From Rhodanobacteraceae bacterium (lineage in GTDB: Bacteria > Pseudomonadota > Gammaproteobacteria > Xanthomonadales > Rhodanobacteraceae): a DNA stretch of 64,000 nt. The stretch's first letter is position 1. Each line of letters begins with the position of its first letter. Position numbers and translations under genes: made by a program. Positions 6,703 through 62,908 of the stretch are shown here, in pieces. Where the stretch lies: the NCBI GenBank assembly GCA_035699085.1, contig DASSBG010000004.1:50281-114280 (forward strand), read 5' to 3'. Under the pieces are notes generated by a model. That model made no database searches. It was not told the DNA's origin and saw nothing but the letters and a program-made list of their open reading frames with translations.

Positions 6703-7319
6703 CGATGCAGCGGCTGGCGGTGCGCCTTGCTGCGGCTGCGTTGCTGTTGCTGGCGGCCGCCTGTGCACCAGTGCACGTGCGCCCGACGCAGGCGCTGCTG
6801 GCGGCGCAGGCGGCGCGCGAAGATGCCTTTCCCGGGCATGGGCGATGGACCATCGAGGGCCGGCTTGGCGTCTCCGATGGCCACGACGGCGGCAGTGGCA
6901 CGCTGACCTGGCTGCAGGATGGTGCCAGCTACGATTTCATCGTCCGCGCACCGGTGACCGGGCGCAGCTTCCGCCTGCACGGCGACGCCGGCGCAGCCGT
7001 GCTGGAAGGCCTGGACCAGGGACCTCTGCGTGGCAGCGATCCGCGCACGCTGCTGGCCCGGGCGCTGGGCTGGCGCGTGCCGCTCGACCAGCTTCGCTTT
7101 TGGGTGCGCGGCTTGCGGGCACCCGGCAGCGAGGCCGAGCTGGAATTCGGCGCAAACGGCCTGCCGGCCACGCTGCTGCAGGATGGCTGGAACATCGAGT
7201 ACAAGGACTGGTACGGCACCCAGCCGCCGCTGCCGCGCAAGGTCTTCGCCAGCAGCGGCCCCTTCCGCGTCCGCCTCGCCATCCGCACCTGGAAGCTTGG
7301 TGTCGCGGCGATGCCTTGA
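6699..7319 (+). CDS. lolB: outer-membrane lipoprotein LolB
   Basis: 206 aa with lipobox LLLLAAAC. GTGA overlap with the upstream TPR gene. Conserved position divergent from hemA-prfA. Assignment rests mainly on size, lipobox and synteny. Confidence 0.75.
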   Translation: MTMQRLAVRLAAAALLLLAAACAPVHVRPTQALLAAQAAREDAFPGHGRWTIEGRLGVSDGHDGGSGTLTWLQDGASYDFIVRAPVTGRSFRLHGDAGAAVLEGLDQGPLRGSDPRTLLARALGWRVPLDQLRFWVRGLRAPGSEAELEFGANGLPATLLQDGWNIEYKDWYGTQPPLPRKVFASSGPFRVRLAIRTWKLGVAAMP

Positions 7320-7324
7320 CAGCC

Positions 7325-7530
7325 GGGAATGTCAAAGCGGGGAATGGGGAATGGGGAAAGCGCGGATTCGACATCGCGCACTTGCACGACGGCCGGCCCC
7401 GCGAAGCCGAGCGTCGCTGAGGGAAGCGAACATGCTCGCGCGCGCGGCGACAACAACGACCCAGCGCTGCTGCTCTACCGATTCCCGATTCTCGATTCCC
7501 CATTCCCGGCTCTGATTCATTCCCACTCCC
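7325..7530. repeat. composite heptamer-array element (G-rich arm / 119-bp core / inverted C-rich arm)
   Basis: GGGAATG..GGGGAAT GGGGAAT GGGGAAA at 7325-7359. CCGATTC CCGATTC TCGATTC CCCATTC CC...CATTCCC at 7479-7530, the reverse-complement type. Lies between the convergent lolB and porin stops. Confidence 0.9.
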
Positions 7531-7533
7531 GGC

Positions 7534-8724
7534 CTAAAACGCGAACTGGGCGCGCACCTCGACGATGCGCGGGTCGACCGGCAGCTTGCCGCTGTCGCGG
7601 CTCGTCCGCACATAGTTGGCCTGGAGCTTGAACAGCTGGCTGACGTACCAGTTGAGGCCGAGCGTCCAGTCGTGCGCCGAGCCGCCGCGCACCACGCCAT
7701 CATCGAGGTCGATGGTGGAGTAGCGCAGTGCCAGTTCCAGCGCGCCGCCACCGTCGAGGTCGGGGTCGCCAAAGCCGGTGTGGGCGTAGCTGTGCGACTG
7801 GCCGGTGAGCATCCAGCCACCCTGCAGGTAGTAGCCGCTGCCGTCGAAGGTCGGCCCGGCGCGGCGTGCCGCGTGCGCCGCGAGATATTCCCCTTGGATC
7901 AGGAGCGGACCCTGCAGCCAGCCTGCCTCGAAACCGCCGCGGTCGATGTGATCGATACCGCTGAGCTTGCCGGTGTCGACCAGCCGCACCGGCGTCAGGT
8001 GTGTCTCCGGCCGGGCGCGGAAGCGGGCGGTGTGGCTGTCGCGCTGTTCCCGCGACAGCGCCAGCCCGAGGTGCAGGACCTGGCCTGGCGCGCTCATTGG
8101 CGCGTAGACCACGCGCCCGGCGGTGGTGGTGCCGTCGCCGTCGTGGTTGAGGTCGTGGGCCGCAAACCAGAGCGCCTGCACGGTCCAGTGCGGCGTCTTG
8201 TTCCAGGTCCAGCCGACGCCGGCGCGGCGGCCCTCGAAAATCATCTCGACCGGCAGCGCGCTTTCCATGAACATGGTCTGCGCGCCCGATTCGGTGCCTT
8301 TCTCCCAGCCAACCGGGGTGCGGAACTCGCCAAGCTTCCACTGTCCGCCGGCGGTACTGAAGCTGACGTCGTTGTCGGTCCAGGCGTCGGCGTGGAAATC
8401 GTAGCCGACGCGGACGGTGTAGCGGCCTTTCTGCACCAGCCGCAGGTCAAACTGCTGCCGCCGCCAGGTGTTGGCGTCGGTGAACAGCTCGCCGCCGCCA
8501 ACCAGGCGGTCGTGGTCAAAGCGCGCCCAGTCGTACTGGATGTCGCCCGTGAATTGCAGCTCCGCGCCGTTGTCGAGGGAGATGTTGAAGGTGTCGCCGG
8601 GCTTGGCCAGCGCCGTCGCTGCGACAGGCAGCGCCAGCAGCGCCGCGAATGCGACGCTGCCGGCGTGTCGACGAACCGAACTGCTTTTGCGCTCAGGCCG
8701 CAGACGCGTGGTGGGTGATGCCAA
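7534..8724 (-). CDS. phosphate-selective porin O/P family protein
   Basis: ORF 7534..8817 with beta-barrel C-terminus ...EVRAQFAF and LRYSTIDLDD...TLGLNWYVSQLFKLQANY, an OprO/P-like signature. Signal peptide ...VAFAALLALPVAATALA. The start is uncertain: there is no ATG/GTG near the signal peptide and the TTG at 8724 overlaps the hemerythrin gene end. Confidence 0.75.
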   Translation of the reverse strand: MASPTTRLRPERKSSSVRRHAGSVAFAALLALPVAATALAKPGDTFNISLDNGAELQFTGDIQYDWARFDHDRLVGGGELFTDANTWRRQQFDLRLVQKGRYTVRVGYDFHADAWTDNDVSFSTAGGQWKLGEFRTPVGWEKGTESGAQTMFMESALPVEMIFEGRRAGVGWTWNKTPHWTVQALWFAAHDLNHDGDGTTTAGRVVYAPMSAPGQVLHLGLALSREQRDSHTARFRARPETHLTPVRLVDTGKLSGIDHIDRGGFEAGWLQGPLLIQGEYLAAHAARRAGPTFDGSGYYLQGGWMLTGQSHSYAHTGFGDPDLDGGGALELALRYSTIDLDDGVVRGGSAHDWTLGLNWYVSQLFKLQANYVRTSRDSGKLPVDPRIVEVRAQFAF

Positions 8725-9160
8725 GGTCCGATTTGGCCTTGGTCCTGGCAGTTTGCAGCTCCTTGCCAAGCGCCTCCAGGTCCAAGTCGGCCTTCGCGAC
8801 TTTCGGCATGATCTCATTCTCTTCTTCCTTGACGTGGTGCTGCACGTATTCCTTGAGTACCGTCAGCCGCGCGGTAAAGAGCTTCGCGCTCATGTCGTCC
8901 TCGATGTTGGCAATCAGGTTGGCCAGGCTGGCGTGCTCGACCAGCGCCTCGTCCACGAGGCTGCGCTCCTTGCTGCCCAGCGCCTTGTCGGCGGCGGGGT
9001 AGAAAACCTCTTCCTCGATCGCACTGTGGACCTTTAGTTCGTCGCAAATCTGCTGCGCAATCTGCTTTTGTTTGTTGGGTTCGGCCTTCTCGCACTTCTT
9101 GAACAGCTCGTCGACCTTGTCATGGTCGTCCTTCAGCATCTGGATTGCGTTCTTGCTCAT
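8693..9160 (-). CDS. hemerythrin (HHE cation-binding) domain protein
   Basis: ORF 8693..9214 trimmed to MSKNAIQMLKDDHDKVDELF..., with H/E-rich helices (HSAIEEEVFYP, HHVKEEENEIMP). Confidence 0.8.
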   Translation of the reverse strand: MSKNAIQMLKDDHDKVDELFKKCEKAEPNKQKQIAQQICDELKVHSAIEEEVFYPAADKALGSKERSLVDEALVEHASLANLIANIEDDMSAKLFTARLTVLKEYVQHHVKEEENEIMPKVAKADLDLEALGKELQTARTKAKSDLGITHHASAA

Positions 9161-9368
9161 GGGGCATGCCTCAGCGGGTTCTTCAGGTTTTTTGGGGAAT
9201 GACGCAACGCCCACGCAATGCTACGGGCGGGCCATGAACGCCGGCGAAGCGGCGCACGAGGGCGCCGTCGGATGCCGCCTGCGACAGCCCGCCGCCGCTG
9301 CGGCCGCCAGAGGGCGTTCATGCCGGCACGCCTAAGCTCGCCGCGAATTGGCCGCATGGAGCGCCGCA

Positions 9369-9947
9369 ATGGTGCAAGCCGCGATTCCCGAGGAGGCTTC
9401 GAAACCATTGGCCAACAGCGCGCTGCTGATCATCGACATGATCAACCAGTTCGATTTTCCCGGCGGCGACGCCCTGCGCCGCCAATGCGACGACGTCGCC
9501 ACGGCCATCGAGACCCTGCGCCAGCGCTTTGACGAGGCGCACCGGCCGGTCATCTACGTCAACGACAATTTCGGCCGCTGGCGATCAAACTTCGAAAAGC
9601 TGATCGAGCGCTGCGAGCGTGCGGGCAGCGACGGCGGCGCGCTGGCCCGGCGCATGGCGCCGCGGCCGACCGATTACTTTGTCCTGAAGCCGCAGAACTC
9701 GGCTTTCTACCACACGCCGCTGGTGCTGCTGCTGGCCTCGCTGAAGGCGCGCGAGCTGACCTTGGCCGGCATCGCCGGCGACCAGTGCGTGATGCAGACG
9801 GCGATGGACGCGCACCTGCGCGACTACGGCCTGCAGGTGCCGGCGGATGCCACGGCCTCGATCACGCCGGCACGGAATCGGCGCGCGCTCGACTACCTCC
9901 ACGAGGTCGTGGGCGTGGACACCACACCGGTTGCGAGTGGGGGGTAG
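9369..9947 (+). CDS. isochorismatase-family cysteine hydrolase
   Basis: ORF 9348..9947 containing ALLIIDMINQFDF...VIYVNDNF...LAGIAGDQCVMQTAMDA, typical isochorismatase-fold motifs including the catalytic Cys context. Confidence 0.8.
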   Translation: MVQAAIPEEASKPLANSALLIIDMINQFDFPGGDALRRQCDDVATAIETLRQRFDEAHRPVIYVNDNFGRWRSNFEKLIERCERAGSDGGALARRMAPRPTDYFVLKPQNSAFYHTPLVLLLASLKARELTLAGIAGDQCVMQTAMDAHLRDYGLQVPADATASITPARNRRALDYLHEVVGVDTTPVASGG

Positions 9948-10158
9948 GCGTGGCAGGTTTGATCGCGGCGTCGAGACGGCGGCGTCGGCACGCCGGCATG
10001 CAGCGACCAGCGACGGCAGAGCGGTAGCGGCAAAGCCGCGTGCCGGCATGGTCGCCGGTGCCGGGCAAGTGCGGCCCGTGCAGATCATTGCGTGGCGGGG
10101 TGTCGTGCAGGGACGCGATGCCGCACCCGCGCTGCCCGCATTCCCGATTCCCTGCTGC

Positions 10159-11133
<975 letters not shown>

Positions 11134-11143
11134 CCGCGCCTGC

Positions 11144-11401
<258 letters not shown>

Positions 11402-12754
11402 TCACGTGGCGCCCTCGTCGCCATCGTTCCGGTGGCGGCTGAGGGCGCGGCGGCGCTGGTCCAGCAACGGTGAGGTGGTGGTGCCGTGGACAGCGACACT
11501 GGCAGCCACGGCGGTGACAACGATGGCCGACACCAACTGCGCGTGTTGCTGGCCGCCATAGCCGTGGGTGAGGGCATAGGCGAGGTAGTTCAGGCTGCCG
11601 ATGCCGCGGATGCCCAGCCAGCCCATCATCAGCCGCCGTTCCCATGGCAGGTGCAGTCCGAAGGTCGCGATCCAGACGGCTGCCGGCCGCACCAGCACGA
11701 ACAGCCAGGCGGCAACCACCAACCCGCGCCAGTCCCAGTTCTGTGCGATCAGCACGCCGAGCAGCAGCATCAGCAGTGTGCCCAGCAGCCGCTCCAGCGT
11801 GCTGCCGAAGCTGAGCGCGCCATGGACCATCTTGCCGACGGCGCCCAACGGCGTCGGCTCGTCCTCGCCGCGCCAGGCCTCCGTACGCCACTCGGCCGGT
11901 GTCGCCGGCACGCTGCGGTCGCTGCCAGCCTGGCCCTCGCGCGTGACGATCGCCATCTCGGTGCGGCGCAGGCCGAGCCCGGCCGCAAAAACCGCGACAT
12001 AGCCAAGGGTCTGTGCGCCCTGCGCCGCGGCGTAGGTCAGCAGCATCAGCGCCAGCATCAGCAGGTCGCCGGGCGCGCCGGCGCGGGTGGTGGTGCGCAG
12101 ACGCACGATGGCATGCCCGGCGATCCAGCCCATGGCATAGCCGATGGCGACGGCGCCCGGGACCGCCCACAGCACATGCAGCAGGAACCAGTGCGACACC
12201 GTCGCAGCGCCGAACCCGGCGTGCAAGGTCGCCAGGCCCAGCAGCAGGAAGGGCAGGGCGGTGCCATCGTTGAAGCCGGCCTCGCCCGACAGCGCGACGT
12301 GCAGGTCGTCGCGGTCGGTGGCGTCGTTGACCGCCACCTGGCTTGCCAGCACCGGGTCGGTCGGCGCCAACATGGCCGACAGCATCAGCGCCAGCGGCCA
12401 GCTCAGGCCCAGGAACAGGTGCAGCGGGACCGTCAGCCCGGCGACCGTCAGCACCATCGCGATCGACGCCAGCCGTCCCGCCGGGCGCCACAGCGCGCTG
12501 GTGAACGGAATGCGCATCTTCAGGCCGCCGATGAACAGCGACACGATCAGCGAGATCTCGGTCAGCCGCTCCAGCCAGTAGGCATCGTCGGGGAAATCGA
12601 TCGACACCAGCCCCAGCACCAGCGGGCCGGCGACGAAGCCGACGGCCATGTAGATCGCGTAGGTGGTGATCGGCAGGTGGCGCACCCAGCCGGAAACCAG
12701 CGAGATTGTCAGCAGCAGCGCGCCGAGCGCCGCCATCCAGGCGAGGAAGCTCAT
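11402..12754 (-). CDS. cation:proton antiporter (Na+/H+ exchanger family)
   Basis: ORF 11402..12883 trimmed to MSFLAWMAALGALLLTISLV. About 11-12 hydrophobic segments. LAPTDPVLASQVAV is the typical exchanger motif. Confidence 0.85.
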   Translation of the reverse strand: MSFLAWMAALGALLLTISLVSGWVRHLPITTYAIYMAVGFVAGPLVLGLVSIDFPDDAYWLERLTEISLIVSLFIGGLKMRIPFTSALWRPAGRLASIAMVLTVAGLTVPLHLFLGLSWPLALMLSAMLAPTDPVLASQVAVNDATDRDDLHVALSGEAGFNDGTALPFLLLGLATLHAGFGAATVSHWFLLHVLWAVPGAVAIGYAMGWIAGHAIVRLRTTTRAGAPGDLLMLALMLLTYAAAQGAQTLGYVAVFAAGLGLRRTEMAIVTREGQAGSDRSVPATPAEWRTEAWRGEDEPTPLGAVGKMVHGALSFGSTLERLLGTLLMLLLGVLIAQNWDWRGLVVAAWLFVLVRPAAVWIATFGLHLPWERRLMMGWLGIRGIGSLNYLAYALTHGYGGQQHAQLVSAIVVTAVAASVAVHGTTTSPLLDQRRRALSRHRNDGDEGAT

Positions 12755-12980
12755 GCGGCCCGCCCGGCCTGCCGGGGGGCGACGCGCCACCTCAACGTGG
12801 CCACCGCCTGCTTCGCCGCTGTCGCGTTCCGCTGCCGGGCCATCCTTCGCTCCTCCTGCATCCTTCGCGGCGCCCGCCGGCATCGCCGGTCAGGCGATCG
12901 TGGCCGTGCCGGAGTACGGCGGCCAGTCAGGCTGGGCTTGCTAATTTCGTGGTGGGGCAATCCAGACGCGGAGACGATCA

Positions 12981-13169
12981 ATGCCAGCCAAGTCAAAAGC
13001 GCAACAGAAAGCGGCGGGTGCCGCCTTGTCGGCCAAGGAAGGTGAAACCAAGGTCGGCGAGCTGCGCGGCGCGTCAAAGTCGATGTACAAGTCGATGAGC
13101 AAGAAGGAGCTGCATGACATGGCTTCGACCAAGCGCAAGGGCAAGCCGGAGCACAAGTCTGATTCCTGA
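12981..13169 (+). CDS. DUF3008-like small protein
   Basis: MPAKSKAQQKAAGAALSAKEGETKVGELRGASKSMYKSMSKKELHDMASTKRKGKPEHKSDS, a conserved small-protein pattern. Confidence 0.65.
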   Translation: MPAKSKAQQKAAGAALSAKEGETKVGELRGASKSMYKSMSKKELHDMASTKRKGKPEHKSDS

Positions 13170-13182
13170 GGTCGTGGGATGA

Positions 13183-13212
13183 CCGCGCGCCGGAGCAAAT
13201 GCCGGCGCGCGG
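13183..13212. terminator. perfect 11-bp GC hairpin between convergent genes
   Basis: CCGCGCGCCGG-agcaaatg-CCGGCGCGCGG. No U-tract. Located between the stops at 13169 (+) and 13220 (-). Confidence 0.45.
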
Positions 13213-13219
13213 CCGCGGG

Positions 13220-13504
13220 TCAGCTGCGGTTGACGAGCTTGCAGAAGGTGCTGTCGCCGCCGCCGGATTTCTCCTGCTGGTAGAGCAGCGCCAGGTTCGC
13301 GCAGTCGAACTTGTCGAACCAGTCGTCCCAGCTGATCGTTTCAAGATCGTCCTTGCCTGCGCCGCCGGGGAAGTCGATGCGCAGGACCCCGGAGTCGTCG
13401 TCGGCGTTGGCGGTACCGCGTACCGTTGCGGGCTTGCCGTCGTGCTGCTCCACCCAGCGCCGGATTTCCTCGTGGTCGGTGGTGGTTTTGGAATGCGATG
13501 CCAT
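13220..13504 (-). CDS. hypothetical protein (94 aa)
   Basis: ORF 13220..13549 trimmed to MASHSKTTTDHEEIRRWVEQHDGKPATV.... Balanced composition and good GC3. Confidence 0.6.
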   Translation of the reverse strand: MASHSKTTTDHEEIRRWVEQHDGKPATVRGTANADDDSGVLRIDFPGGAGKDDLETISWDDWFDKFDCANLALLYQQEKSGGGDSTFCKLVNRS

Positions 13505-13641
13505 GGTTTCGCCTCCGCATGTGGACTGATTGCTGCGCGTGCCGGGCACATCGGCTGCCGGCTGCTGCGTTGCGGGTTTTTTTACGCTGCGCCAGATGAA
13601 CTGGTGCTGTGCCGGCCCGCTCTCGGTGGCTGAAGCGCTGC

Positions 13642-14505
<864 letters not shown>

Positions 14506-14705
14506 GGCGATCTCCTGATGGTCGATCCCTGCACCTTACAAACCCCTCGCCAGCCGCCCGATGAAGCGGCGTGCGGCGCCGTCGCCCGGTTCATGCTGCA
14601 GTTCGCCGGCCCGAGGTGCCGAGACAGGCAATGCGACCGCCCGGCGGCCCGAAGGCGCGTCGGTCGATCCTCAATCGCAAATCCACCGATCCCGGCGCAC
14701 CCGCA

Positions 14706-14734
14706 TTGACAGCCGCGGGGCCAGCGCAGACAAT
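14706..14734 (+). promoter_or_regulatory. candidate sigma70 promoter upstream of tRNA-Gln/prs
   Basis: TTGACA (14706-14711), 17 nt spacer, GACAAT (14729-14734). Lies about 165 nt upstream of tRNA-Gln. Confidence 0.4.
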
Positions 14735-14900
14735 CGCCGCTTCGCTTGCGGTTCAGTACCCGGAATGTGTCCCTGCCGGTCGTCCATGCGCGCCACGCCA
14801 CTGCGGTTGCGGCAGCCAAGGGATTGGAGGGGTGCGGCCCGCTGCGGCCGCCCCGCCTCGCCGCCGCGCAGCCTGCGGCGGCAGCCGGAGCCTTTCGCGA

Positions 14901-14976
14901 TGGGGCGTCGCCAAGTCGGTAAGGCACGGGGTTTTGATCCCCGCATTCGCAGGTTCGAGTCCTGCCGCCCCAGCCA
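14901..14976 (+). tRNA. tRNA-Gln (anticodon UUG)
   Basis: Hand-folded cloverleaf: acceptor TGGGGCG/CGCCCCA, anticodon arm CGGGG-TTTTGAT-CCCCG, T arm GCAGG-TTCGAGT-CCTGC, discriminator G plus encoded CCA. Confidence 0.9.
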
Positions 14977-14991
14977 TCGCCACAGCGAGGA

Positions 14992-15954
14992 ATGCCGATG
15001 ACCGCGCCCGGCCTGTTGCTGTTCACCGGAAATGCGCACCGCGCGCTGGCCGAGGAAATCGGCCATCGACTCGGGGTGCCGCTGGGCAAGGCCCTGGTTG
15101 GCCACTTCAGCGACGGCGAGGTGCAGGTCGAGATCGAGGAGAACGTGCGCGGCCAGGACGTGTTCCTGGTCCAGCCGACCTCGGCACCGGCCGCCGACCA
15201 TCTGATGGAGTTGCTGGCGCTGGCCGATGCGCTGAAGCGTGCCTCGGCCGTCTCCGTGACCGCGGTGATGCCCTATTTCGGATACGCGCGCCAGGACCGC
15301 CGCCAGCGCTCCGAGCGGGTGCCGATCACCGCCAAGCTGGTGGCCAAGATGATCAGCGCTGCCGGCGTCGACCGCGTGCTGACCGTGGACTTGCATGCCG
15401 ACCAGATCCAGGGTTTTTTCGATATCCCGGTCGACAACGTCTATGCCTCGCCGGTGCTGCTGGCCGACATCTGGCGCCACCAGGACCGCGACCACCTGAT
15501 CGTGGTCAGCCCCGACGTCGGTGGCGTGCTGCGCGCGAGGGCCATCGCCAAGCGCCTCGACGACGCCGAGCTGGCGATCATCGACAAGCGCCGGCCGCGC
15601 GCGAATGAGGTGGCGGTGATGAACATCATCGGTGACGTCCGCGGCCGCACCTGCGTGCTGGTGGACGACATCGTCGACACTGCCGGCACGCTCTGCGCGG
15701 CGGCCGCGGCGCTGAAGGAGAACGGCGCCCGCAAGGTTGTGGCGTACTGCGTGCATCCGGTGCTGTCCGGGACGGCCGTGGCGCGCGTTGATGGTTCCCA
15801 GCTCGACGAGCTGATCGTCACCGACACCATTCCGCTGCGGCCGGAGGCCGAGGGCTGCCGCAAGATCCGGGTGCTGGCGGTAGCCGAGCTGCTGGCCGAG
15901 ACCGTGCGGCGCATCGCCTTCCGCGAGTCGGTCAGTTCGCTCTACGTCGACTGA
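14992..15954 (+). CDS. prs: ribose-phosphate pyrophosphokinase
   Basis: [16 protein letters not shown]...[10 protein letters not shown]...[13 protein letters not shown]...[11 protein letters not shown] (PRPP-binding loop). A second ATG lies at 14998. Confidence 0.97.
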
Positions 15955-16058
15955 GCCGGCCCCGCCGGCCGCGGCGGCCTGTTTGGCGGCAACGATGGGC
16001 CGCGGCGGCTGAAACCCGCCCCGTCCCCTGCTCCCAGTCCCTGCGCCCTGCTCCCTGC

Positions 16059-16190
16059 TATAATGCCCGGCTTTTCCCGCGCTTCGTCCGGCCGCCTCCG
16101 CGGCCGGCTGCGCACAACCCGACTTTCCTGGTCGCGGGAAAGTCAACCAGCCGCTGCGAGGCGGCCAATGCAACCAAGGGCAACAAGCTA
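16059..16190 (+). promoter_or_regulatory. candidate promoter (perfect TATAAT) and structured 5' leader of rplY
   Basis: TATAAT at 16059-16064. Two hairpins in the leader: CCGGCCGC-ctcc-GCGGCCGG (16088-16107) and GACTTTCC-tggtcgcg-GGAAAGTC (16121-16144). Confidence 0.4.
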
Positions 16191-16862
16191 ATGGCAACCA
16201 GACACGAGATGACCGCGCAGCCGCGCAGCGACGAAGGCAAAGGTGCGAGCCGCCGCCTGCGTCGGGCCGGCATGGTCCCGGCCATCATTTACGGCGGGGC
16301 GGAAAAGCCGCAGTCGATCCAGTTCGAGCACGAGGCGGTGGTGCTTGCCGCGCGCAACGAGTGGTTCCTTTCCTCGATCCTCGATCTGTCGATCGGCGGC
16401 AAGAAGCAGAAGGTGTTGCTGCGTGACCTGCAGAAGCATCCGTTCAAGCAGCAGATCATGCACATGGATTTCCAGCGGGTCAGCGAGAACGAGGCAGTGC
16501 GCGTCAACGTGCCGCTGCACTTCGTGAACCAGGAGGTCTCGCCGGCGCACAAGATGGCCGGCGTGGTGGTGTCGCACAACCTCACCGAGGTCGAGGTGTC
16601 CTGCCTGCCCAAGGACCTGCCGGAGCACATCGACGTCGACCTGGCCGAACTGAAGCAGGGCGACCTGGTGCACCTGTCGGACCTGGTGCTGCCGCCGGGC
16701 GTCGAGATCGCGCTGCTGAAGTTCGGCAAGGAATACGACCAGACGGTGGTGTCGGCCCACGCCATGCGCGAGGAAGTCGAGGAAACGCCGGAGGTGCCCG
16801 CCGAGGGCGCGGCCGCGCCGGAGGCTGGTGCGCCGGCAGCCGACGAAGGCGAGAAGAAGTAA
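16191..16862 (+). CDS. rplY: 50S ribosomal protein L25 / general stress protein Ctc
   Basis: RLRRAGMVPAIIYGG...VLLRDLQKHPFKQQIMHMDFQRV with an acidic C-terminal extension, the long Ctc form. Confidence 0.95.
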   Translation: MATRHEMTAQPRSDEGKGASRRLRRAGMVPAIIYGGAEKPQSIQFEHEAVVLAARNEWFLSSILDLSIGGKKQKVLLRDLQKHPFKQQIMHMDFQRVSENEAVRVNVPLHFVNQEVSPAHKMAGVVVSHNLTEVEVSCLPKDLPEHIDVDLAELKQGDLVHLSDLVLPPGVEIALLKFGKEYDQTVVSAHAMREEVEETPEVPAEGAAAPEAGAPAADEGEKK

Positions 16863-16940
16863 GCCGCTGCGCACGCGCCGCATCAGGAGGCTGGATGGTT
16901 TTACCGCCCGGGCTCCTGCGGCGCGGCGCGTTCGGCGTGC

Positions 16941-17558
16941 GTGGATGCTGCCGTGACGGATCTGCAACTCATCGTTGGGCTGGGCAATCCGGGCGCCGAA
17001 TACCTGCGCACGCGGCACAACGTCGGATTCTGGTTTGCCGATGCGCTGGCCCAGGCGGCAGGGGCGCGGTTCGCGGCCGCGCCCAAGCTTCACGGTGAGG
17101 CCTGCAAGCTGGAGGTGGCCGGCAAGCCGCTGTGGCTGCTCAAGCCAGCCACGTTCATGAACGAGAGCGGCCGCTCGGTCTCGGCGGCGCTGCGCTACTA
17201 CAAGCTTGAACCGGCGCAGTGCCTCGTGGTCCATGACGACCTTGACCTGCCGCCGGGCACGGCGCGGCTGAAGTTCGACGGTGGCCACGGCGGCCAGAAC
17301 GGCCTGCGCGACATCATCCGCCATGCCGGCAGCGGATTCCACCGGCTGCGCATCGGCATCGGGCATCCGGGTCACAGGGACCGCGTGCTGCCCTGGGTGC
17401 TGGGCAAGCCCTCGGCACAGGACGAGGAGGCCATGGTCGACGCCGTCCGCCGCTCGCTCGACGTGCTTCCGCTTGCCGTCGCCGGCGACCTCAACGAGGC
17501 GATGAAGAGGCTGCACACCGAAAGCCGGGACCCGGGACCCGGGACCCGGGACCCGTGA
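16941..17558 (+). CDS. pth: peptidyl-tRNA hydrolase
   Basis: LIVGLGNPGAEYLRTRHNVGFWF...HDDLDLPPG..RLKFDGGHGGQNGLRD. An alternative GTG start lies at 16953. The last ~10 codons ([11 protein letters not shown]) are encoded by the (GGGACCC)4 array. Confidence 0.93.
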   Translation: MDAAVTDLQLIVGLGNPGAEYLRTRHNVGFWFADALAQAAGARFAAAPKLHGEACKLEVAGKPLWLLKPATFMNESGRSVSAALRYYKLEPAQCLVVHDDLDLPPGTARLKFDGGHGGQNGLRDIIRHAGSGFHRLRIGIGHPGHRDRVLPWVLGKPSAQDEEAMVDAVRRSLDVLPLAVAGDLNEAMKRLHTESRDPGPGTRDP

Positions 17559-17751
17559 AGGCAGGATCCGGAGCGCCGGAATTTCTGCGAGTTCCGACGC
17601 GAAGTAACGCGATAGCTTGGGCCCTCTTGCGCAGTTGTTGTGCGAAGTCTGACTCTGCGACGTAACTGCTTCCCGGGGTCCCGGGTCCCGGGTCCCGGTC
17701 CCGGTCCCGAGTCCCGGCCCAATCGAAACCCGGGTCCAAACCGAGTCCCGG
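17527..17751. repeat. composite heptamer-array element ((GGGACCC)4 / 119-bp core / (GGGTCCC)n)
   Basis: Left arm 17527-17554. Right arm 17675-17717, with degenerate units continuing to 17751. The arms are reverse complements. Confidence 0.9.
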
Positions 17752-17779
17752 TAGTAACCAGCCTCAGGAGTCCCCACCC

Positions 17780-18871
17780 ATGGGCATCAAATGCGGCATC
17801 GTGGGCTTGCCCAACGTTGGCAAGTCGACCCTGTTCAATGCGCTGACCAAGGCGGGCATCGCCGCGGCCAACTTCCCCTTCTGCACCATCGAGCCCAACG
17901 TCGGCGTGGTGCCGGTTCCGGACCAGCGGCTCGGCGTGCTGGCCGGCATCTGCAAGCCGCAGAAGGTGATCCCCGCGGCGGTCGAGTTCGTCGACATCGC
18001 CGGGCTGGTGGCCGGGGCCTCGAAAGGCGAGGGCCTGGGTAACAAGTTCCTGGCGCATATCCGCGAGGTCGATGCCATCGCCCACGTCGTGCGCTGTTTC
18101 GAGCATGGCGACATCGTGCACGTGGCGGGCAGGATCGACCCGGTGGCCGACATCGAGACCATCGACACCGAGTTGGCGCTGGCCGATCTTGAATCGGTCG
18201 AGAAGGCACTGAACCGCGCCGAACGCGCGGCCAAGGCCAATGACAAGGACGCGTTGGCGCGCAAGCCGGTGTTGCAGAAGCTGGCGACGGCGCTGGGCGA
18301 GGGCCGCTCCGCGCGGAGCGCCGGGCTCGACGAGGAGGAGCGTGCGCTGGTGCGCGACCTGTTCCTGCTGACGCTGAAGCCGTTGATGTACATCGCCAAC
18401 GTGCGCGAGGACGGCTTCGTCGACAACCCGCACCTGGATGCGGTACGCGCGCGCGCTGCGGCCGAGGGCGCCGAGGTGGTGCCGGTATGCGCCGCCATCG
18501 AGGAAGAGATGGCGCAGCTGGATGATGCCGATCGCGACGAGTTCCTCGCCGACCTCGGGCTGGAGGAGCCGGGCCTGGACCGGGTCATACGCGCCGCCTA
18601 TACGCTGCTTGGCCTGGAAACCTACTTCACCGCCGGCGAAAAGGAAGTGCGCGCCTGGACGGTGCGCAAGGGCTCGACCGCGCCGCAGGCGGCCGGCGTG
18701 ATCCACAGCGACTTCGAGAAGGGCTTCATCCGCGCCGAGACCGTCAGCTACGACGACTTCGTCAAGTACCGGGGCGAATCCGGCGCCCGCGACGCCGGCC
18801 GCCTGCGCACCGAGGGCAAGTCGTACATCGTCCAGGAGGGCGACGTCCTGCATTTCCTTTTCAACGTCTGA
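17780..18871 (+). CDS. ychF: redox-regulated ATPase YchF
   Basis: [23 protein letters not shown] with a C-terminal TGS-like ...[18 protein letters not shown]. Confidence 0.97.
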
Positions 18872-18877
18872 AGGGCC

Positions 18878-19160
18878 GGGAATGGGGAATGGGGAATGGG
18901 GCGCCGCCGCGGCGGACGCGGCGATGCCGAGAGTCGGTGACCCGTGACCCTGACCCGTGACCCGTGACCCGTGACCCGTGACCCGCAAAGCGGTGGTCGC
19001 GAGCTTGAGCTGCGCAAAGCAGCCCCAGGATTTCCCGGCATCGCGTCGTTTTGCGCAAGTAAGCCCGGACACACCAACGCTCCGGATTTTGCCTCTACGG
19101 GGTCCCGGGTCCCCGGTCCCGGGTCCCGGGTCGCCTGACCCGCACAATCACGAATCCCGG
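18878..19160. repeat. composite heptamer-array element ((GGGAATG)3, (GTGACCC)7 / 114-bp core / (GGGTCCC)n)
   Basis: GGGAATG x3 at 18878-18901. GTGACCC x7 (one 6-nt unit) at 18937-18984. GGGGTCCCGGGTCCCCGGTCCCGGGTCCCGGG at 19099-19142. The core is homologous, in reverse orientation, to the 17556-17674 core. Confidence 0.9.
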
Positions 19161-19171
19161 CGCTACCGGCG

Positions 19172-19762
19172 CTACCGGCGCCTGCGCGGGAGGTGGTGCC
19201 GCAGGAACTCCATCTGGTCGGCGAGAATGTTGCGGTTGGAGAGGATCAGGTGCTCGACCCAGCTCGGCCGGTAGGGCACGGCCAGCAGCGGCATGTTGGC
19301 CTGCTGCGGCGTGCGGTTGCTCTTGCGGATGTTGCAGGCGATGCAGGCGGTGACGACGTTTTCCCAGCAGTCCGCGCCGCGTCGGGAGAGCGGCAACACG
19401 TGGTCGCGGGTCAGCTGGCCGCGCGGAAAGTGGTCGCCGCAGTACATGCACAGGTGGCGGTCGCGGGCGAACAGCGCGGCGTTGGTCAGCGCCGGCGCCG
19501 GGTCGATCAGGCGGTCATGGCAATGACCGGTGCTGGCAACGATCGGGTGCAGGCGGATCACGCTTTGGCGGCCGTCGTCGCGCTGATGGCCGCCGTGGAC
19601 CGTCAGGCAGGGATCGCCGAGCGTCCAGGCCACCGCCTCGCGTACGTAGAGGCAGACGGCATCCTGCCAGCTGATCCAGTCAAGGATGCGGCCGGTGACG
19701 TCCAGCGACAGGACGCGGGTGGCTTCCAGATCGTTCAGCGTTTGCGGTATTCGGGCGAGCAT
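19172..19762 (-). CDS. HNH endonuclease family protein
   Basis: ORF 19172..19774 trimmed to MLARIPQ. Contains CMYCGDHF...LTRDHVLPLSRRG...WENVVTACIACNIRKSN (HNH/CxxC motifs). Confidence 0.85.
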   Translation of the reverse strand: MLARIPQTLNDLEATRVLSLDVTGRILDWISWQDAVCLYVREAVAWTLGDPCLTVHGGHQRDDGRQSVIRLHPIVASTGHCHDRLIDPAPALTNAALFARDRHLCMYCGDHFPRGQLTRDHVLPLSRRGADCWENVVTACIACNIRKSNRTPQQANMPLLAVPYRPSWVEHLILSNRNILADQMEFLRHHLPRRRR

Positions 19763-19875
19763 GCGAACTCCCATGCCGCGCCGCCTGTGACGGTGCGGTT
19801 GGCAATGTCCGCGCCAGCATAGCGCAATCGCGCGGCGCAGCGGAAGCTGGCACCGCGCGTGTCATCGTGCCCGTC

Positions 19876-31301: not shown

Positions 31302-31330
31302 CGGGTCCCGGGTACAGGGTCCCCGATCCC
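31302..31330. repeat. short heptamer array
   Basis: CGGGTCCCGGGTACAGGGTCCCCGATCCCC. It is G-rich on the minus strand immediately after the stop of the 31334..31789 gene. Confidence 0.7.
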
Positions 31331-31333
31331 CAG

Positions 31334-31789
31334 CTACTTCCCGTCCTTCTTTGCCGCCGCGGCCGCCTTGGACTTCATTTTGTCCCGGCGCGCCTTCATG
31401 CGATCCTCACGCTGTTTCATCCGCGCTTCCATTTCCGGCGTGACCTTGCGGAAAGACATCCGCAGCATCACCTTGTCGCCGGTTTTGAGGCCGGCCAGGG
31501 TCTCGGGCGGAAAATGCACCCGCACGGTGTGACCGTTGCTCTTCACCTCAAGCATGCCGGTGGTCTTGTCGACCGACATGACGGAACCTTCCATGCGGTG
31601 GCTGCCCATGGCGCCGCGCATCATGCGCCGCTTCTGCATGCGCTCGCGCATGGCCTTTCGCATCGCCTGTTTCTGCGCCGTCGCGCTGTGTGCCGGAGCC
31701 GGCGCGGGGGTCGCGGTCTGTGCCAGCGCCAGTGGCGCCGCCAGGGCCAGGATTGCTGCCAGCAGGTACACCTGTTGCCGTTTCATCAT
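31334..31789 (-). CDS. Met/Lys-rich periplasmic protein, hypothetical
   Basis: Signal peptide MMKRQQVYLLAAILALAAPLALA. Then M-rich stretches (MRKAMRERMQKRRMMRGAMGSHRMEGSVM) and a small beta domain. Confidence 0.6.
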   Translation of the reverse strand: MMKRQQVYLLAAILALAAPLALAQTATPAPAPAHSATAQKQAMRKAMRERMQKRRMMRGAMGSHRMEGSVMSVDKTTGMLEVKSNGHTVRVHFPPETLAGLKTGDKVMLRMSFRKVTPEMEARMKQREDRMKARRDKMKSKAAAAAKKDGK

Positions 31790-35582: not shown

Positions 35583-35665
35583 GGGGGAAGTGTAGCAGTG
35601 GGGTGAAGACCTGACCTGTGAGACGGGTGCACGTCTGTTGCGGTGCCAAACGTTGATCGGCAAGC

Positions 35666-36014
35666 GGTGAGCGGTGAGCCGGAAACACGCAGGGCTCGTC
35701 GGAGCGGCTCCTCCGATTCCCGATTCTCCATTCCCCATTCCCGCGAAGCGGCGCCAAGCGCACCCGCTATCGCGTTTCACCAGACCACCACCGCCGTCCA
35801 CATCGGGTTACGGCCTGCGGCCTGACTCGACCTGCGGCGTCACAACCGGCCTCGCACCTGTGGGTCGGCTGGCATCGCAGCTGCGGAATCCGACATGGCC
35901 GCTTTGCCAGTCCCCGGTCCCTGGTCCCTGGTCCCCGGTCCCCGTTCGTGCCCTCAACGCACGATCGGGTTACCCTGCTCTCCGATTCCCCCCTTCTCCA
36001 TTCCCGATTCCCGG
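35666..36014. repeat. cluster of heptamer arrays plus a REP-like hairpin in a divergent promoter region
   Basis: (GGTGAGC)2 at 35666-35679. GATTCCC-type array at 35714-35743. REP-like TCGGGTTACGGCCTGCGGCCTGACTCGACCTGCGGCG at 35803-35839. (GTCCCYG)n at 35911-35944. GATTCCC-type array at 35984-36014. Confidence 0.85.
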
Positions 36015-40469: not shown

Positions 40470-40613
40470 GGGGATCAGGGATCGGGTATCTGGTTGGGGA
40501 TTCGGATTTCCACCTGCGCAGGGGCCCGCGGCAGCGTCGGGTTACGCGCCTGCGGCGCTGACCCGACCTGCGGCTGACGTTTATTGCCTGCGGGTCCCGG
40601 CTTGTCCGGGTCA
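40470..40613. repeat. heptamer array plus REP-like hairpin
   Basis: GGGGATCAGGGATCGGGTATCTGGTTGGGGATTCGGATTTCC at 40470-40511. GTCGGGTTACGCGCCTGCGGCGCTGACCCGACCTGCGGC at 40536-40574. CGGGTCCCGGCTTGTCCGGGTCA at 40591-40613. Confidence 0.85.
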
Positions 40614-41295: not shown

Positions 41296-41850
41296 ATGAG
41301 CTTCAGCCTCAACAGCGAGCCTTTCACCCTGCAACGCGACTGCGCGGCCGTGCTGGTGCCCGCCGGCGACCAGGTCACGCTGCCCGCGGGGCAGATCGGT
41401 TACATCACCCAGGCACTCGGCGGCAGCTTCACCGTCTACGTCGAGGGCAACCTGTTCCGCATCGTCGGCAGCGACGCCGACGCGTTGGGCAAGGATCCGC
41501 CCAAACCCATCGAACTGCCGCCCGATGCGGGCGACAAGGATGTCGAAAAGGCGGTCTGGGACCAGCTGCGTACCTGCTTTGATCCGGAGATCCCGATCAA
41601 CGTCGTCGAGCTGGGGCTGGTCTACGATGTCAGCGTCGAGCACCGCGACGATGGCACGCGCAGCGTCTACATCAAGCTGACGCTGACCGCGCCCGGCTGC
41701 GGCATGGGCGACATCCTGGTCGACGACGCGCGTACCAAGGTGGAAATGATCCCGACGGTCGAAGAGGCCGACATCGACTTGGTCTTCGACCCGCCCTGGA
41801 ACTACTCGATGATGTCGGACGCGGCAAAGCTCGAGACGGGGATGCTGTGA
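41296..41850 (+). CDS. SufT-like Fe-S cluster assembly protein (DUF59 domain)
   Basis: VWDQLRTCFDPEIPINVVELGLVYDV...LTLTAPGCGMG is the DUF59/MIP18 signature. The N-terminal extension is typical of SufT. Confidence 0.8.
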   Translation: MSFSLNSEPFTLQRDCAAVLVPAGDQVTLPAGQIGYITQALGGSFTVYVEGNLFRIVGSDADALGKDPPKPIELPPDAGDKDVEKAVWDQLRTCFDPEIPINVVELGLVYDVSVEHRDDGTRSVYIKLTLTAPGCGMGDILVDDARTKVEMIPTVEEADIDLVFDPPWNYSMMSDAAKLETGML

Positions 41851-41955
41851 GGCGGTGAGCGGCGGGCCGCGGCGGTCTGCGGTGCGGTGAGCGGTGAGCG
41901 GAAGAGCGCCGCGGCGCGCAGGTTGGCGGTGAGCGAAGCGAACCCCAACACGCCA
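41851..41955. repeat. GGTGAGC-type arrays plus the left copy of a 35-bp inverted repeat
   Basis: GGCGGTGAGCGG and GGTGCGGTGAGCGGTGAGCGG lie between 41851 and 41901. AGGTTGGCGGTGAGCGAAGCGAACCCCAACACGCCA at 41920-41955. Confidence 0.85.
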
Positions 41956-42008: not shown

Positions 42009-42494
42009 TCAGGTCGGCTCGAAACGGTTCGCCTCTCGATTCTTTCGCACGTGGGCGGGGTCCCAGATACGGCCATTCATCGCGATCCAGACGCCGTCGG
42101 GAAGGCTCTGAACGGCGCCGACCGCGCAGCCGATGTTGAACACGGCGTCGGAGCCGTCGAAGCGCGCCGGATTCAAGGCGCCGGTCAGCACGATCACCTT
42201 GCCCTCGATCGAAGCCAGCTCGCGCGCGGTCTCCACCATGGTGTCGGTGCCGTGGGTGACCAGCACGTGGCGATGTGGCTGCGCCTCGATGGTTCGGCTG
42301 ATCAGTTCGCGGTCACCAGCGTCGATGTCGAGGCTGTCCTTGCGCAGGATCGGCAGCAGGTCGAAGCGGAAGCCGACGCCGAGCTGCGTGAGGATGTCGC
42401 CGATCTGCGGCGCGCCGATCTGGTAGTCGGACTTTGCATCGAAGTAGACCTTGTCGATGGTGCCGCCGGTGGTGACGATGCTGAGGTGGTGCAT
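42009..42494 (-). CDS. asparaginase-domain protein (short, 161 aa)
   Basis: Trimmed to MHHLSIVTTGGTIDKVY (the asparaginase TGGTID active-site motif), then HGTDTMVETA. Confidence 0.8.
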   Translation of the reverse strand: MHHLSIVTTGGTIDKVYFDAKSDYQIGAPQIGDILTQLGVGFRFDLLPILRKDSLDIDAGDRELISRTIEAQPHRHVLVTHGTDTMVETARELASIEGKVIVLTGALNPARFDGSDAVFNIGCAVGAVQSLPDGVWIAMNGRIWDPAHVRKNREANRFEPT

Positions 42495-42555
42495 GGCGGT
42501 CGGCCTGGTGAGGGGCGAGCCGCCTAGTCTAGCGGGCTGTGCCCTGCGCGGCAGC

Positions 42556-42711
42556 GGGACCTCGGGATCTCGGGACGCGGGGCTCGGGGTTCGGGGTTCG
42601 GGACAGGACACGGGACTGGGGACCCGGGACCCGGGACCCGCAAGGGCACTGGCTCGGCCTCTGCGTGGGTGCAGGCTGGCGTGTTGGGTTCGCTTCGCTC
42701 ACCGCCAACCT
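42556..42711. repeat. G-rich heptamer array plus the right copy of a 35-bp inverted repeat
   Basis: GGGACCTCGGGATCTCGGGACGCGGGGCTCGGGGTTCGGGGTTCGGGACAGGACACGGGACTGGGGACCCGGGACCCGGGACCC at 42556-42640. TGGCGTGTTGGGTTCGCTTCGCTCACCGCCAACCT at 42678-42711. Confidence 0.9.
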
Positions 42712-42717
42712 TTGCAC

Positions 42718-43854: not shown

Positions 43855-43871
43855 GGGAGGCGGGAGGAGGC

Positions 43872-44345
43872 GGGACTCGGGATTACCCGGGACCGGGGAC
43901 CCGGGGCCCGGGACCGGAAAAGCGCGGGATCGGCTTGCCGGATCCGAGCAGCGACGCGGCCGCGCTGCGCACTGAGGCGCCGCATCGGCGCGGCGTCCGC
44001 CGGCCGTCGTGCGCGACCAGCCGAGGAGCCTGCATCGTCCGCGTTCAGACGCACGCGGGACCCGGGACCGGGGACCGGGGACCGGAAAAAAAAAGCGCGG
44101 GATCGGCTTGCCGGATGCGACCAGCGACGCGGCCGCGCTGCCTGTTCGAAGCGCCGCATCAGGCGACGGGTGCAGCCCTGCAGTCGCCACGGGCCGGGGC
44201 GCAATCCGCGTCATCCGCGTTGACGTGCCCACGCGTCGTCCCCGAGTCCCGGGGCCATGCGGTGGCAATCGTGGCGCGGCCATGTCGTCGGCGGCTGCTG
44301 CGCGGCTGATCCCGCGCCTTTACGGGTCCCGGGTCCCCGGTCCCG
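43872..44345. repeat. two direct copies (~170-bp period) and one inverted partial copy of an array-plus-core unit
   Basis: Array 43872-43916 followed by AAAAGCGCGGGATCGGCTTGCCGGATCCGAGCAGCGACGCGGCCGCGCTGC. Array 44057-44085 followed by AAAAGCGCGGGATCGGCTTGCCGGATGCGACCAGCGACGCGGCCGCGCTGC. Inverted GATCCCGCGCCTTTACGGGTCCCGGGTCCCCGGTCCCG at 44308-44345. Confidence 0.9.
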
Positions 44346-52873: not shown

Positions 52874-53171
52874 GGGATTCGGGACCGGGGACCGGGGACC
52901 GGGGACCAGGGACCGGGGACCAGGGACCAGGGACCAAGGACCAGGGACCAGGGACCAGGGACCAGGGACCAGGGACCAGGGACCAGGGACCGGGGACCGG
53001 AAGAGCGAACGCCGGGGCCACCAATGCAGCAACCCTGCATGATTTTGCTCTGGCCATCATCAAGGGAACGCAAAACGACACGCGGCGGCACCGCCCGTGC
53101 GACTGCGACACTGTCCCCGCGCATCCCGGTCCCTGGTCCCCGGTCCCGGTCCCCGTTGCGCCGAGTCCCGG
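52874..53171. repeat. composite heptamer-array element with an 18-unit arm
   Basis: 18 consecutive 7-nt units at 52874-52999: GGGATTC, then GGGACCG/GGGACCA variants and one AGGACCA. 125-bp core. Inverted CCCGGTCCCTGGTCCCCGGTCCCGGTCCCCG at 53125-53155, plus GAGTCCCGG at 53163-53171. Confidence 0.92.
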
Positions 53172-62724: not shown

Positions 62725-62742
62725 CGGCCGGTATTCGTGATC

Positions 62743-62908
62743 GGGGATTGGGGATTGGAGACCAGCGCAGGGCTGGCGGTGAGCGATGCCGGCGCTACCG
62801 CAGGCGACGGGAGATCGCGCGGCAGCGGCGTCGGGGCAGGGGCGCGGCATGATCCCGCGCCTTTGCGAAGCCCTGCTCACGAATCACCAATCCCGGCTTC
62901 ACCTCACC
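62743..62908. repeat. composite heptamer-array element (GGGGATT arm / ~122-bp core / C-rich arm)
   Basis: GGGGATTGGGGATTGG at 62743-62758. The core ends with GATCCCGCGCCTTTGCG (62851-62867). GAATCACCAATCCCGGCTTCACCTCACC at 62881-62908. Confidence 0.8.

Follow-up and report, generated by a model that had tools for sequence, protein, structure and literature searches.

The DNA analysed here, a 64-kb window of a metagenome-assembled genome (MAG) of a Rhodanobacteraceae bacterium, carries a family of intergenic elements in which two arrays of a tandemly repeated 7-nt unit face each other, as reverse complements, across a core. These elements belong to the kind of heptamer repeat already published for Xanthomonas and are built like REPINs, the hairpin-forming doublets of REP (repetitive extragenic palindromic) sequences; they are not a new class. 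With a probability of about 0.65, we consider them to be copies of heptamer-repeat extragenic palindromes of the Xanthomonadales/Lysobacterales, which were dispersed by duplication and form hairpins in a REPIN-like manner. The census and the homology claims given below refer to these 64 kb.

The element between lolB and a porin gene (element A) serves as the archetype. Its 5' arm (7325-7359, forward strand) begins 5 nt after the lolB stop codon (7317-7319) and consists of GGGAATG (7325-7331), TCAAAGCG, and (GGGGAAT)2 GGGGAAA (7339-7359). A subterminal junction motif, AAAGCGCGGATTC (7357-7369, forward strand), lies on the inner side of this arm. The core has 119 nt (7359-7477), and the 3' arm after it (7478-7532, forward strand) repeats the 5' arm in reverse complement with CCGATTC/CCCATTC units and ends 1 nt before the stop codon (7534-7536) of the porin gene (Porin_O_P in Pfam), a minus-strand gene convergent to lolB. 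The initial annotation had described an array, a core, and an inverted array at 7325-7530, and the sequence of 7325-7532 reads as it said. Since the lolB-porin spacer is 100% identical in eight independent assemblies, the element is not an assembly artefact. A complete element thus has a 5' arm of tandem 7-nt units, a short purine-rich junction (AAGCG, AAGAGC, or AAAGGCGCGGGATC), a core of ~115-125 nt, and a reverse-complement 3' arm.

Under one scoring rule, ten arrays of period 7 are worth at least three units in the window, compared with 0-2 arrays for each of the periods 4-6 and 8-12, and the same period-7 arrays were recovered by Tandem Repeats Finder (TRF). Twenty-five period-7 arrays score 8 or more; 17 of them fall outside the listed genes, most of the others at the ends of over-long open reading frame (ORF) calls, and four weak two-unit matches (4086, 5388, 16371, and 20774) lie inside or beside coding sequence. 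Six complementary arm pairs were found, the pair at 62739 included: four between convergent stops, one between co-directional genes, and one between divergent starts. Arms are flush with ORF ends, 5 nt past the lolB stop, 1 nt short of the porin stop, and overlapping the pth stop, and further arrays lie 6 nt past the ychF stop and 3 nt short of the start at 35948. Units of the GGGAATC/GGGANTN type occur at 7325, 18878, 62739, 10138, and 35713, with GGGACCC, GTGACCC, GGGACCR, GGTGAGC, or CCCTGCT at the remaining loci. Two proposals of the initial annotation are thereby borne out: that a real window-wide family with period-7, mutually complementary arms exists (by the period census, TRF, and the folds described below), and that the unit sequence changes from locus to locus.

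Homology between cores is found at different loci. Element B (17525-17751, forward strand), between pth and ychF, consists of (CCGGGAC)4.4 over the pth stop codon, TGAAGGCAGGATCC, a 117-nt core, and (GGGTCCC)n; element C (18937-19142, minus strand) is its inverted copy on the other side of ychF, with (GTGACCC)7, a 114-nt core, GGATTTTGCCTCTACG (the motif in reverse complement), and (GGGTCCC)n. When core relatives were sought by local alignment scored against dinucleotide shuffles, the core at 17556-17672 aligned end to end with the reverse complement of that at 18986-19099 (~60% identity, z 7.2-7.7), B being homologous to C throughout, in the opposite orientation. Element E (62739-62908, minus strand), between convergent gene ends, has (GGGGATT)2, a core of ~123 nt, and a degenerate GAATCAC/CAATCCC arm; over a block of ~60 nt its core (62759-62881) matches 44086-44322 (z ~8), and the right part of that core, with TGATCCCGCGCCTTT at 62850-62864, has its homologous counterpart at 44273-44322. 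The latter lies in the complex F/G (43856-44345), which has two direct half-sites of (GGGACCS)4 + AAAAGCGCGGGATCGGCTTGCCGGAT at 43885-43940 and 44053-44113, and an inverted half-site of GATCCCGCGCCTTTAC + (GGGTCCC)3 at 44305-44345; the direct half-sites (at 43913 and 44086) are a 51-bp tandem duplication, 96% identical. A metagenomic locus (L147) likewise has two 111-nt cores in inverted orientation with 76% identity.

The cores had been taken for unrelated sequence by the initial annotation, and a blastn-short comparison among the five archetype cores, which found no similarity, had at first led to the same inference; this was overturned for B/C and E/G by the shuffle-scored local alignment. 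The alignment of cores, which had been proposed as a check, is therefore positive in part: B/C and E/G are similar above shuffles, and A and D are without a relative in the window. Among orthologous pth-ychF cores of different genera, only one close pair (L010/L014) is alignable. Whole arm-core-arm units thus appear to have been copied, judging from these alignments, and with two homologous core pairs common descent explains the constant core length better than a length 'ruler' would. The two elements of L147 (996-1964), which mirror the inverted copies around ychF, are located at the 5' ends of two tandem prepilin-like genes (N-termini KNGFTL(I/L)EI).

A different scheme, in which nothing is mobile, would have an array built by slippage at an ORF end and its complement made and kept, across the same spacer, by template switching or by selection for a hairpin in the RNA, the core being simply pre-existing intergenic DNA. 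Such growth in place would suit the presence of arrays at pth-ychF in at least 12 species with turnover of the unit, as well as the arms that hug ORF ends, the dissimilarity of most cores, the 83% positional conservation between X. campestris (Xcc) and X. axonopodis (Xac) (PMC4692102), and the window scans, which found no transposase. However, it does not account for homologous cores at different loci (B/C, E/G, and the L147 pair) or for a junction motif that recurs across genera and with different units. The core length of 114-124 nt is also far less variable than that of the host spacers (179-386 nt), and array-free relatives, together with two distant loci, have just 70-110 nt between pth and ychF, so the element is extra DNA. 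Growth in place is therefore considered rather unlikely. Since cores and the junction motif are common to several loci, the evidence points to whole-element copying, as with REPINs.

Folds of whole elements pair the arms, with z = -4.2 to -5.9 against dinucleotide shuffles. The cores alone are not significantly folded (z +0.8 to -2.7; +0.7 and -0.3 for the core of element A), and the idea that they are structured RNAs was set aside, as these values were not convincing. The pth-ychF spacer was compared in 28 sequences, namely the window, 25 Lysobacterales relatives, and two more distant gammaproteobacterial loci. In at least 12 of the 28, the pth stop carries an array whose complement lies just ahead of ychF, with units that differ by lineage: GGGACCC, GGGACTC, AGCAGGG, GTGAGCG, GGGAATC, and GTTTTAC. 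When the left arm was compared with its own right arm in 12 species, there were 163 matches out of 168, against a mean of 105 after permutation, and none of 20,000 permutations was as good. The arms therefore co-vary. Nine of nine metagenomic contigs with two exact matches have them in convergent order ('+ then -').

The co-variation of the arms bears on a second alternative, one put forward for Xanthomonas: the elements would regulate the gene next to them, at the level of transcription or translation, through a G-quadruplex (G4) that the G-rich arm forms as DNA or as RNA, and pairing of the arms would be secondary. GGGAATC repeats of Xanthomonas form G4 in vitro and favour four units (PMC4692102). 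In the window, the arm at 7325-7359 and the single unpaired array (GGGAATG)3.4 at 18878-18901 (forward strand, 6 nt past the ychF stop) have four G3-4 tracts, and only these have clean tracts of at least three G without matching C-tracts; in skewed pairs, moreover, the G-rich arm is 5' on each strand. On the other hand, orthologous elements in L026-L028 use GTTTTAC/GTAAAAC, which is unable to form G4, the GGGACCC arrays are equally C-rich and G-rich and nearly self-complementary, (GTGACCC)7 is without a G3 tract, and it is the complementarity of the arms, not the G-tracts, that is conserved across species. With co-varying arms and units unable to form G4, arm pairing, and not G4 formation, appears as the conserved property, and a primary G4 role is improbable.

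Some array-free relatives have ordinary REP-like palindromes at pth-ychF, so that heptamer palindromes fill the same niche as REPs. In several Rhodanobacteraceae (L007, L013, L015, L019, and L002), the spacer has another palindromic repeat (…GCTCGTCATCCCGGCGMAGGCCGGGATCCA… and CGCCGGAATGACGGCGTGGAG), sometimes beside a lone heptamer array. Just downstream of ychF in a Lysobacterales MAG (L026, 2687-2890), five G-rich arrays (GAGGGCT/CAGGGCC) follow one another, and AAGAGC(GGGAAGAGC) comes after every one of them, with a complementary CCCTCAG array ~400 nt beyond; this resembles the tandem cluster of half-sites at 43856-44113 of the window. In the window itself, the last ~10 codons and the stop of pth lie inside (CCGGGAC)4.4 (17480-17558), and the C-terminus of Pth in relatives likewise enters the local unit, so that slippage by one unit would change the frame of the tail and shift the stop. 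An arm order opposite to that of all window elements, (GGGTCCC)n and then (GGGACCC)n with spacers of 15-23 nt, was seen in metagenomes at L048 3301-3392, L060 28-103, L063 2591-2669, L114 1483-1562, L116 2122-2195, and L080 482-556.

Core length was measured from objective array boundaries, except for the partner of 62739, which was read from the sequence. The pairs 7339/7478, 17525/17673, 18948/19100, and 52881/53125 have spacers of 119, 117, 114, and 124 nt, the pair 62739/~62882, with its weak right arm, one of ~123 nt, and the pair 44053/44323 one of 237 nt. The fourth of these pairs is element D (52874-53171, forward strand), located between divergent genes and composed of (GGGACCR)17, AAGAGCG, a 124-nt core, and (CCCGGTC)n. 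The initial annotation had given 119, 119, 114, 125, and ~122 nt; the lengths hold closely on remeasuring, with the reservation that the boundaries are soft, as at 17527 in element B, where arm complementarity extends into the 'core' and leaves a loop of 101 nt. Its further suggestion of a fixed-length core as a property of the class holds in this genome only. Spacers of 17 published pairs from Xcc are 42, 50, 60, 36, 67, 53, 21, 28, 23, 28, 39, 89, 41, 28, 91, 135, and 32 nt, most being within 21-67 (PMC4692102); those in related Lysobacterales loci range over 12-162 nt, and those of 42 metagenomic GGGACCC-type pairs over 28-387 nt with a median of 83 (26 of 42 within 60-100 and three within 110-130). 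Spacers cluster by genome, with 114-124 nt in the window, 16-22 in L022, and 57-67 in L027 (permutation p ~2e-4, in a post hoc test on small samples of 3-6 pairs per genome). Therefore, the ~120-nt core is lineage-specific and not a property of the repeat class.

A constant length within a genome, with little conservation of sequence, would also be expected if the arms were iterons, that is, if a DNA-binding or nucleoid protein that reads the heptamers sat on both arms and looped the ~120-bp core into a topological or transcriptional insulator, as gyrase or integration host factor (IHF) does on bacterial interspersed mosaic elements (BIMEs). The conserved junction motif and the location of the elements at gene boundaries are consistent with this scheme. 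However, a protein that binds a specific sequence would not tolerate units that change from locus to locus in one genome, and for the constant length the homology of cores is the simpler explanation. The analysis brought up no candidate protein, and the HNH gene adjacent to element C is without a homolog in 1.2 Mb of array-rich loci. Protein-binding iterons are thus the least probable of the explanations considered here, and quite improbable. A telomere-like origin of the convergent G-rich arms, as a healed break plus filler DNA, was set aside as unnecessary once core homology had been found.

The junction motif is a further feature common to copies. The 12-mer AAGCGCGGGATC is not enriched window-wide at up to two mismatches (21 found, 14 expected); at up to one mismatch, four of six matches lie at or within ~20 nt of an arm. 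The 14 nt just inside each arm were screened for 5-mers in an unbiased test. In 38 flanks from the window and its relatives, AGAGC was observed 9 times (expected 0.17, p 1e-13); in 84 flanks of metagenomic pairs, AAGCG was observed 16 times (expected 0.9, p 9.5e-16), AAAGC 13 times (expected 0.4, p 3.1e-16), and AGAGC 8 times (expected 0.54, p 7.9e-08). A metagenome scan for an arm plus AAAG(G)CGCGGGATC gave no matches. Since 5-mers are enriched on the inner flanks, the junction motif is a real feature of the class. Of 42 metagenomic elements, 24 have it on a single side and three on both; the one-sided motif that had been listed for the window is present at all the positions given, and it confers polarity on some of the elements.

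The initial annotation knew of no described element class of this kind. However, Rehm et al. (2015) describe such arrays in Xanthomonas, and the elements match this catalogued family: GGGAATC-type heptamer arrays number 186 in X. campestris and 183 in X. axonopodis, are 89-93% intergenic, typically lie within 50 bp of an ORF end, and are without association to insertion sequence (IS) elements (PMC4692102). Convergent pairs able to form stem-loops or cruciforms number 70 and 75 in the two species, inverted pairs in Xcc are always convergent, and 83% of arrays keep their position from Xcc to Xac, with repeat length and sequence varying; the functional role 'still remains to be elucidated' (PMC4692102). 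Such arrays are used as markers of variable number of tandem repeats (VNTR) in multiple-locus VNTR analysis (MLVA) typing schemes. The window elements resemble these SSRs, or simple sequence repeats, in the 7-nt unit, the mostly intergenic position near ORF ends, the convergent pairs, the G-rich arm being 5' on each strand, the lack of a link to IS, and positions that are kept from species to species as the repeats change in length and sequence; both occur in the same bacterial order. Unlike the Xanthomonas SSRs, they are found in the family Rhodanobacteraceae, with several unit types in one genome (GGGACCC, GTGACCC, GGGACCR, GGTGAGC, and CCCTGCT), spacers of 114-124 nt as opposed to 21-135 in Xcc, and arms of variable length where those of Xcc mostly have four units. 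Core homology, the junction motif, and a polar core are found here and not reported in PMC4692102; arm co-variation, longer cores, several units per genome, and a wider taxonomic range are also new relative to the published work. With these data, the range of the class takes in Rhodanobacteraceae, Pseudoxanthomonas, and further Lysobacterales besides Xanthomonas.

The structure had also been called unlike REP/BIME, and this does not stand, since its plan is that of a REPIN: an inverted doublet whose spacing is specific to the family and whose spacer is less conserved than its arms, with the transposase located elsewhere in the genome (PMC3116915). REPINs are REP doublets that form hairpins and are mobilised by REP-associated tyrosine transposases (RAYTs); the GI and GII families of P. 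fluorescens have spacing peaks at 71 and 110 bp and spacers less conserved than their arms (PMC3116915). The window elements share with them inverted arms around a spacer with a predicted hairpin, the family-specific distance, the less conserved spacer, the extragenic position, singlets that resemble decayed doublets, tandem clusters, and the absence of an adjacent transposase from most copies. In contrast, the REP arm is one conserved 16-25-mer, itself palindromic and present in hundreds of copies, whereas the arms here are tandem microsatellites whose unit differs by locus, and excision intermediates were not seen. MITEs, or miniature inverted-repeat transposable elements, are similar in being small (170-300 bp), non-coding, and multicopy, with terminal inverted repeats and some homologous cores; unlike MITEs, the elements in the 64-kb window have neither a target-site duplication nor a parent IS with matching ends, their termini are tandem repeats of variable length, and most cores are unalignable. 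A CRISPR array was ruled out, as the repeats are 7-nt tandem units in two arrays inverted around a single core and not interspaced direct repeats of 24-48 nt.

Tandem 7-nt repeats that are abundant and intergenic also occur in Calothrix, Nostoc, and Beggiatoaceae, in mostly direct arrays, unlike here. Those of cyanobacteria go by the name 'STRR'. Calothrix PCC7601 has three tandemly repeated heptanucleotides, and Nostoc PCC7120 has GGGGA(C/T)T repeats with only a few pairs able to form inverted repeats (PMC4692102). For the TAACTGA repeats of Beggiatoaceae, 169 direct sets and one indirect repeat are reported (PMC4679880).

A proposed origin of the window elements as dispersed, REPIN-like palindromes can be described as follows. 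Whole arm-core-arm units may have been copied to new intergenic sites, like REPINs or MITEs, by an enzyme encoded outside the window. If whole units were copied, some cores would still be alignable and core length would be constant in a lineage. Replication slippage would then expand and homogenise each arm locally, and as a result the units would differ between loci while the arms of one element remain complementary. Paired with each other, either in the transcript or within single-stranded DNA, the arms may form a long hairpin that would bracket the whole intergenic region against the flanking ORFs. The likeliest effect would be REP-like, with mRNA 3' ends being protected or defined and neighbouring genes insulated; alternatively, the elements could be near-neutral passengers. 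A more far-reaching version, which is held only tentatively, would make them a distinct class of REPIN-like, non-autonomous mobile DNA across Lysobacterales and related metagenomic lineages, with self-renewing microsatellite termini, in which the unit drifts by slippage and the arms stay complementary, with core lengths of ~20, 60, 85, or 120 nt according to lineage, and with the AAGCG/AAGAGC junction (AAAGGCGCGGGATC here) as putative recognition or cleavage site of the enzyme.

Several results weigh against dispersal by copying and a REP-like role. No relative was detected in the window for the cores at 7359-7477 and 53001-53124, and the test of spacing by genome was post hoc and small. Pfam and NCBIfam scans of the 50 ORF translations of the window found no transposase, RAYT, or integrase, and no direct duplication was seen by eye in the flanks of elements A-E, which agrees with what the initial annotation had said on both transposases and target-site duplications. 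Across the eight assemblies, which are possibly all one clone, there is no presence/absence or copy-number polymorphism at 7320-7533. Since units differ between loci, there is no genome-wide conserved 16-mer as in a true REP; only the short junction motif and some cores are shared among copies, not one conserved sequence. As for function, a promoter/terminator consensus scan of 7000-19400 found no site within the three elements there, the T-run typical of intrinsic terminators is missing from the elements, and a role at mRNA 3' ends cannot apply to the element between divergent starts. An Rfam search, which had been suggested as a check, returned two tRNAs only at the gathering threshold and no covariance model on the elements up to E 1.

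For the xanthomonad heptamer repeats in general, co-varying arms and units incapable of G4 formation narrow the options toward arm pairing. In practical terms, the arrays break short-read assemblies, and at pth the array supplies the C-terminal tail and the stop codon. The longest array, (GGGACCR)17 of element D (52881-53000), is where short-read (Logan) contigs end: the sole contig examined, L046 (1-30), stops inside it, and 15 of 15 contigs with the gene neighbouring this array are shorter than 10 kb.

The looser loci of the initial annotation do hold arrays, at 10138, 31302, 35666-36014, 40470, 41851, and 42556; these are single or degenerate, and mostly abut an ORF end. A degenerate arm of two units, CATTCCCGATTCCC (10138-10155, forward strand), lies beside the stop of a minus-strand gene at 10159-11310, and a degenerate single arm, GGGTCCCGGGTACAGGGTCCCCGATCCCC (31302-31330, forward strand), beside that of a minus-strand gene at 31334-31789. 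Three unpaired arrays, (AGCGGTG)2.4, (CCGATTC)4.4, and (GTCCCCG)5, occupy 35663-35944, the last one ending 3 nt before the gene start at 35948. Degenerate (GGTGAGC)n followed by AAGAGCG is present at 41847-41901 (forward strand), and (CGGGGYT)n + (GGGACCC)n, without a complementary partner, at 42555-42640 (forward strand). Upstream of the L25 gene, the single array (CCCTGCT)5 (16026-16059, forward strand) abuts a TATAAT-like box (GCTATAATG) within 16026-16064, and from this arrangement the array may be the spacer or the -35 part of the L25 promoter. The CCCTGCT unit is also present at the orthologous site in L006 (2298-2323), a relative with 68% identity; the closest L25 relatives among GTDB representatives, MAGs of Rhodanobacteraceae and Pseudoxanthomonas, reach only this value.

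Housekeeping genes identified in the window by Pfam/NCBIfam scans include prfA, hemA, lolB, prs, the L25 gene, pth, ychF, ftsY, mutY, and pntAB, and the G+C content is 66-73%. The HNH gene (19172-19774, minus strand) encodes 200 aa with Pfam HNH/HNH_5 and weak matches to IscB/Cas9d HNH domains, and its 3' end overlaps a (CCGGCGCTA)2.8 repeat at 19157-19181; as partner enzyme of the elements it was rejected for want of any homolog in the 1.2 Mb of array-bearing loci. The gene at 10159-11310 appears to encode a bacterial type IB topoisomerase, uncommon in bacteria, since the database gene call on L040 has Top1B_N_bact and Topoisom_I domains. A weak Rfam match to MIR439, a plant microRNA family, inside the L25 coding region (16638-16733; 34.5 bits against a gathering threshold of 90, E 0.008) is almost certainly due to chance. 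Two other repeats accompany the arrays. The 36-nt AGGTTGGCGGTGAGCGAAGCGAACCCCAACACGCC is present at 41920-41955 and 42678-42712 as two inverted copies with 97% identity, ~720 bp apart, around the gene at 42009-42611, and looks like a separate REP-like repeat. The dispersed repeat GGGTTACGSCCTGCGGCSCTGACYCGACCTGCGGC occurs at 35805-35839 and 40539-40574 (38-nt alignment, 92% identity), both copies lying between genes, in regions where heptamer arrays are present as well.

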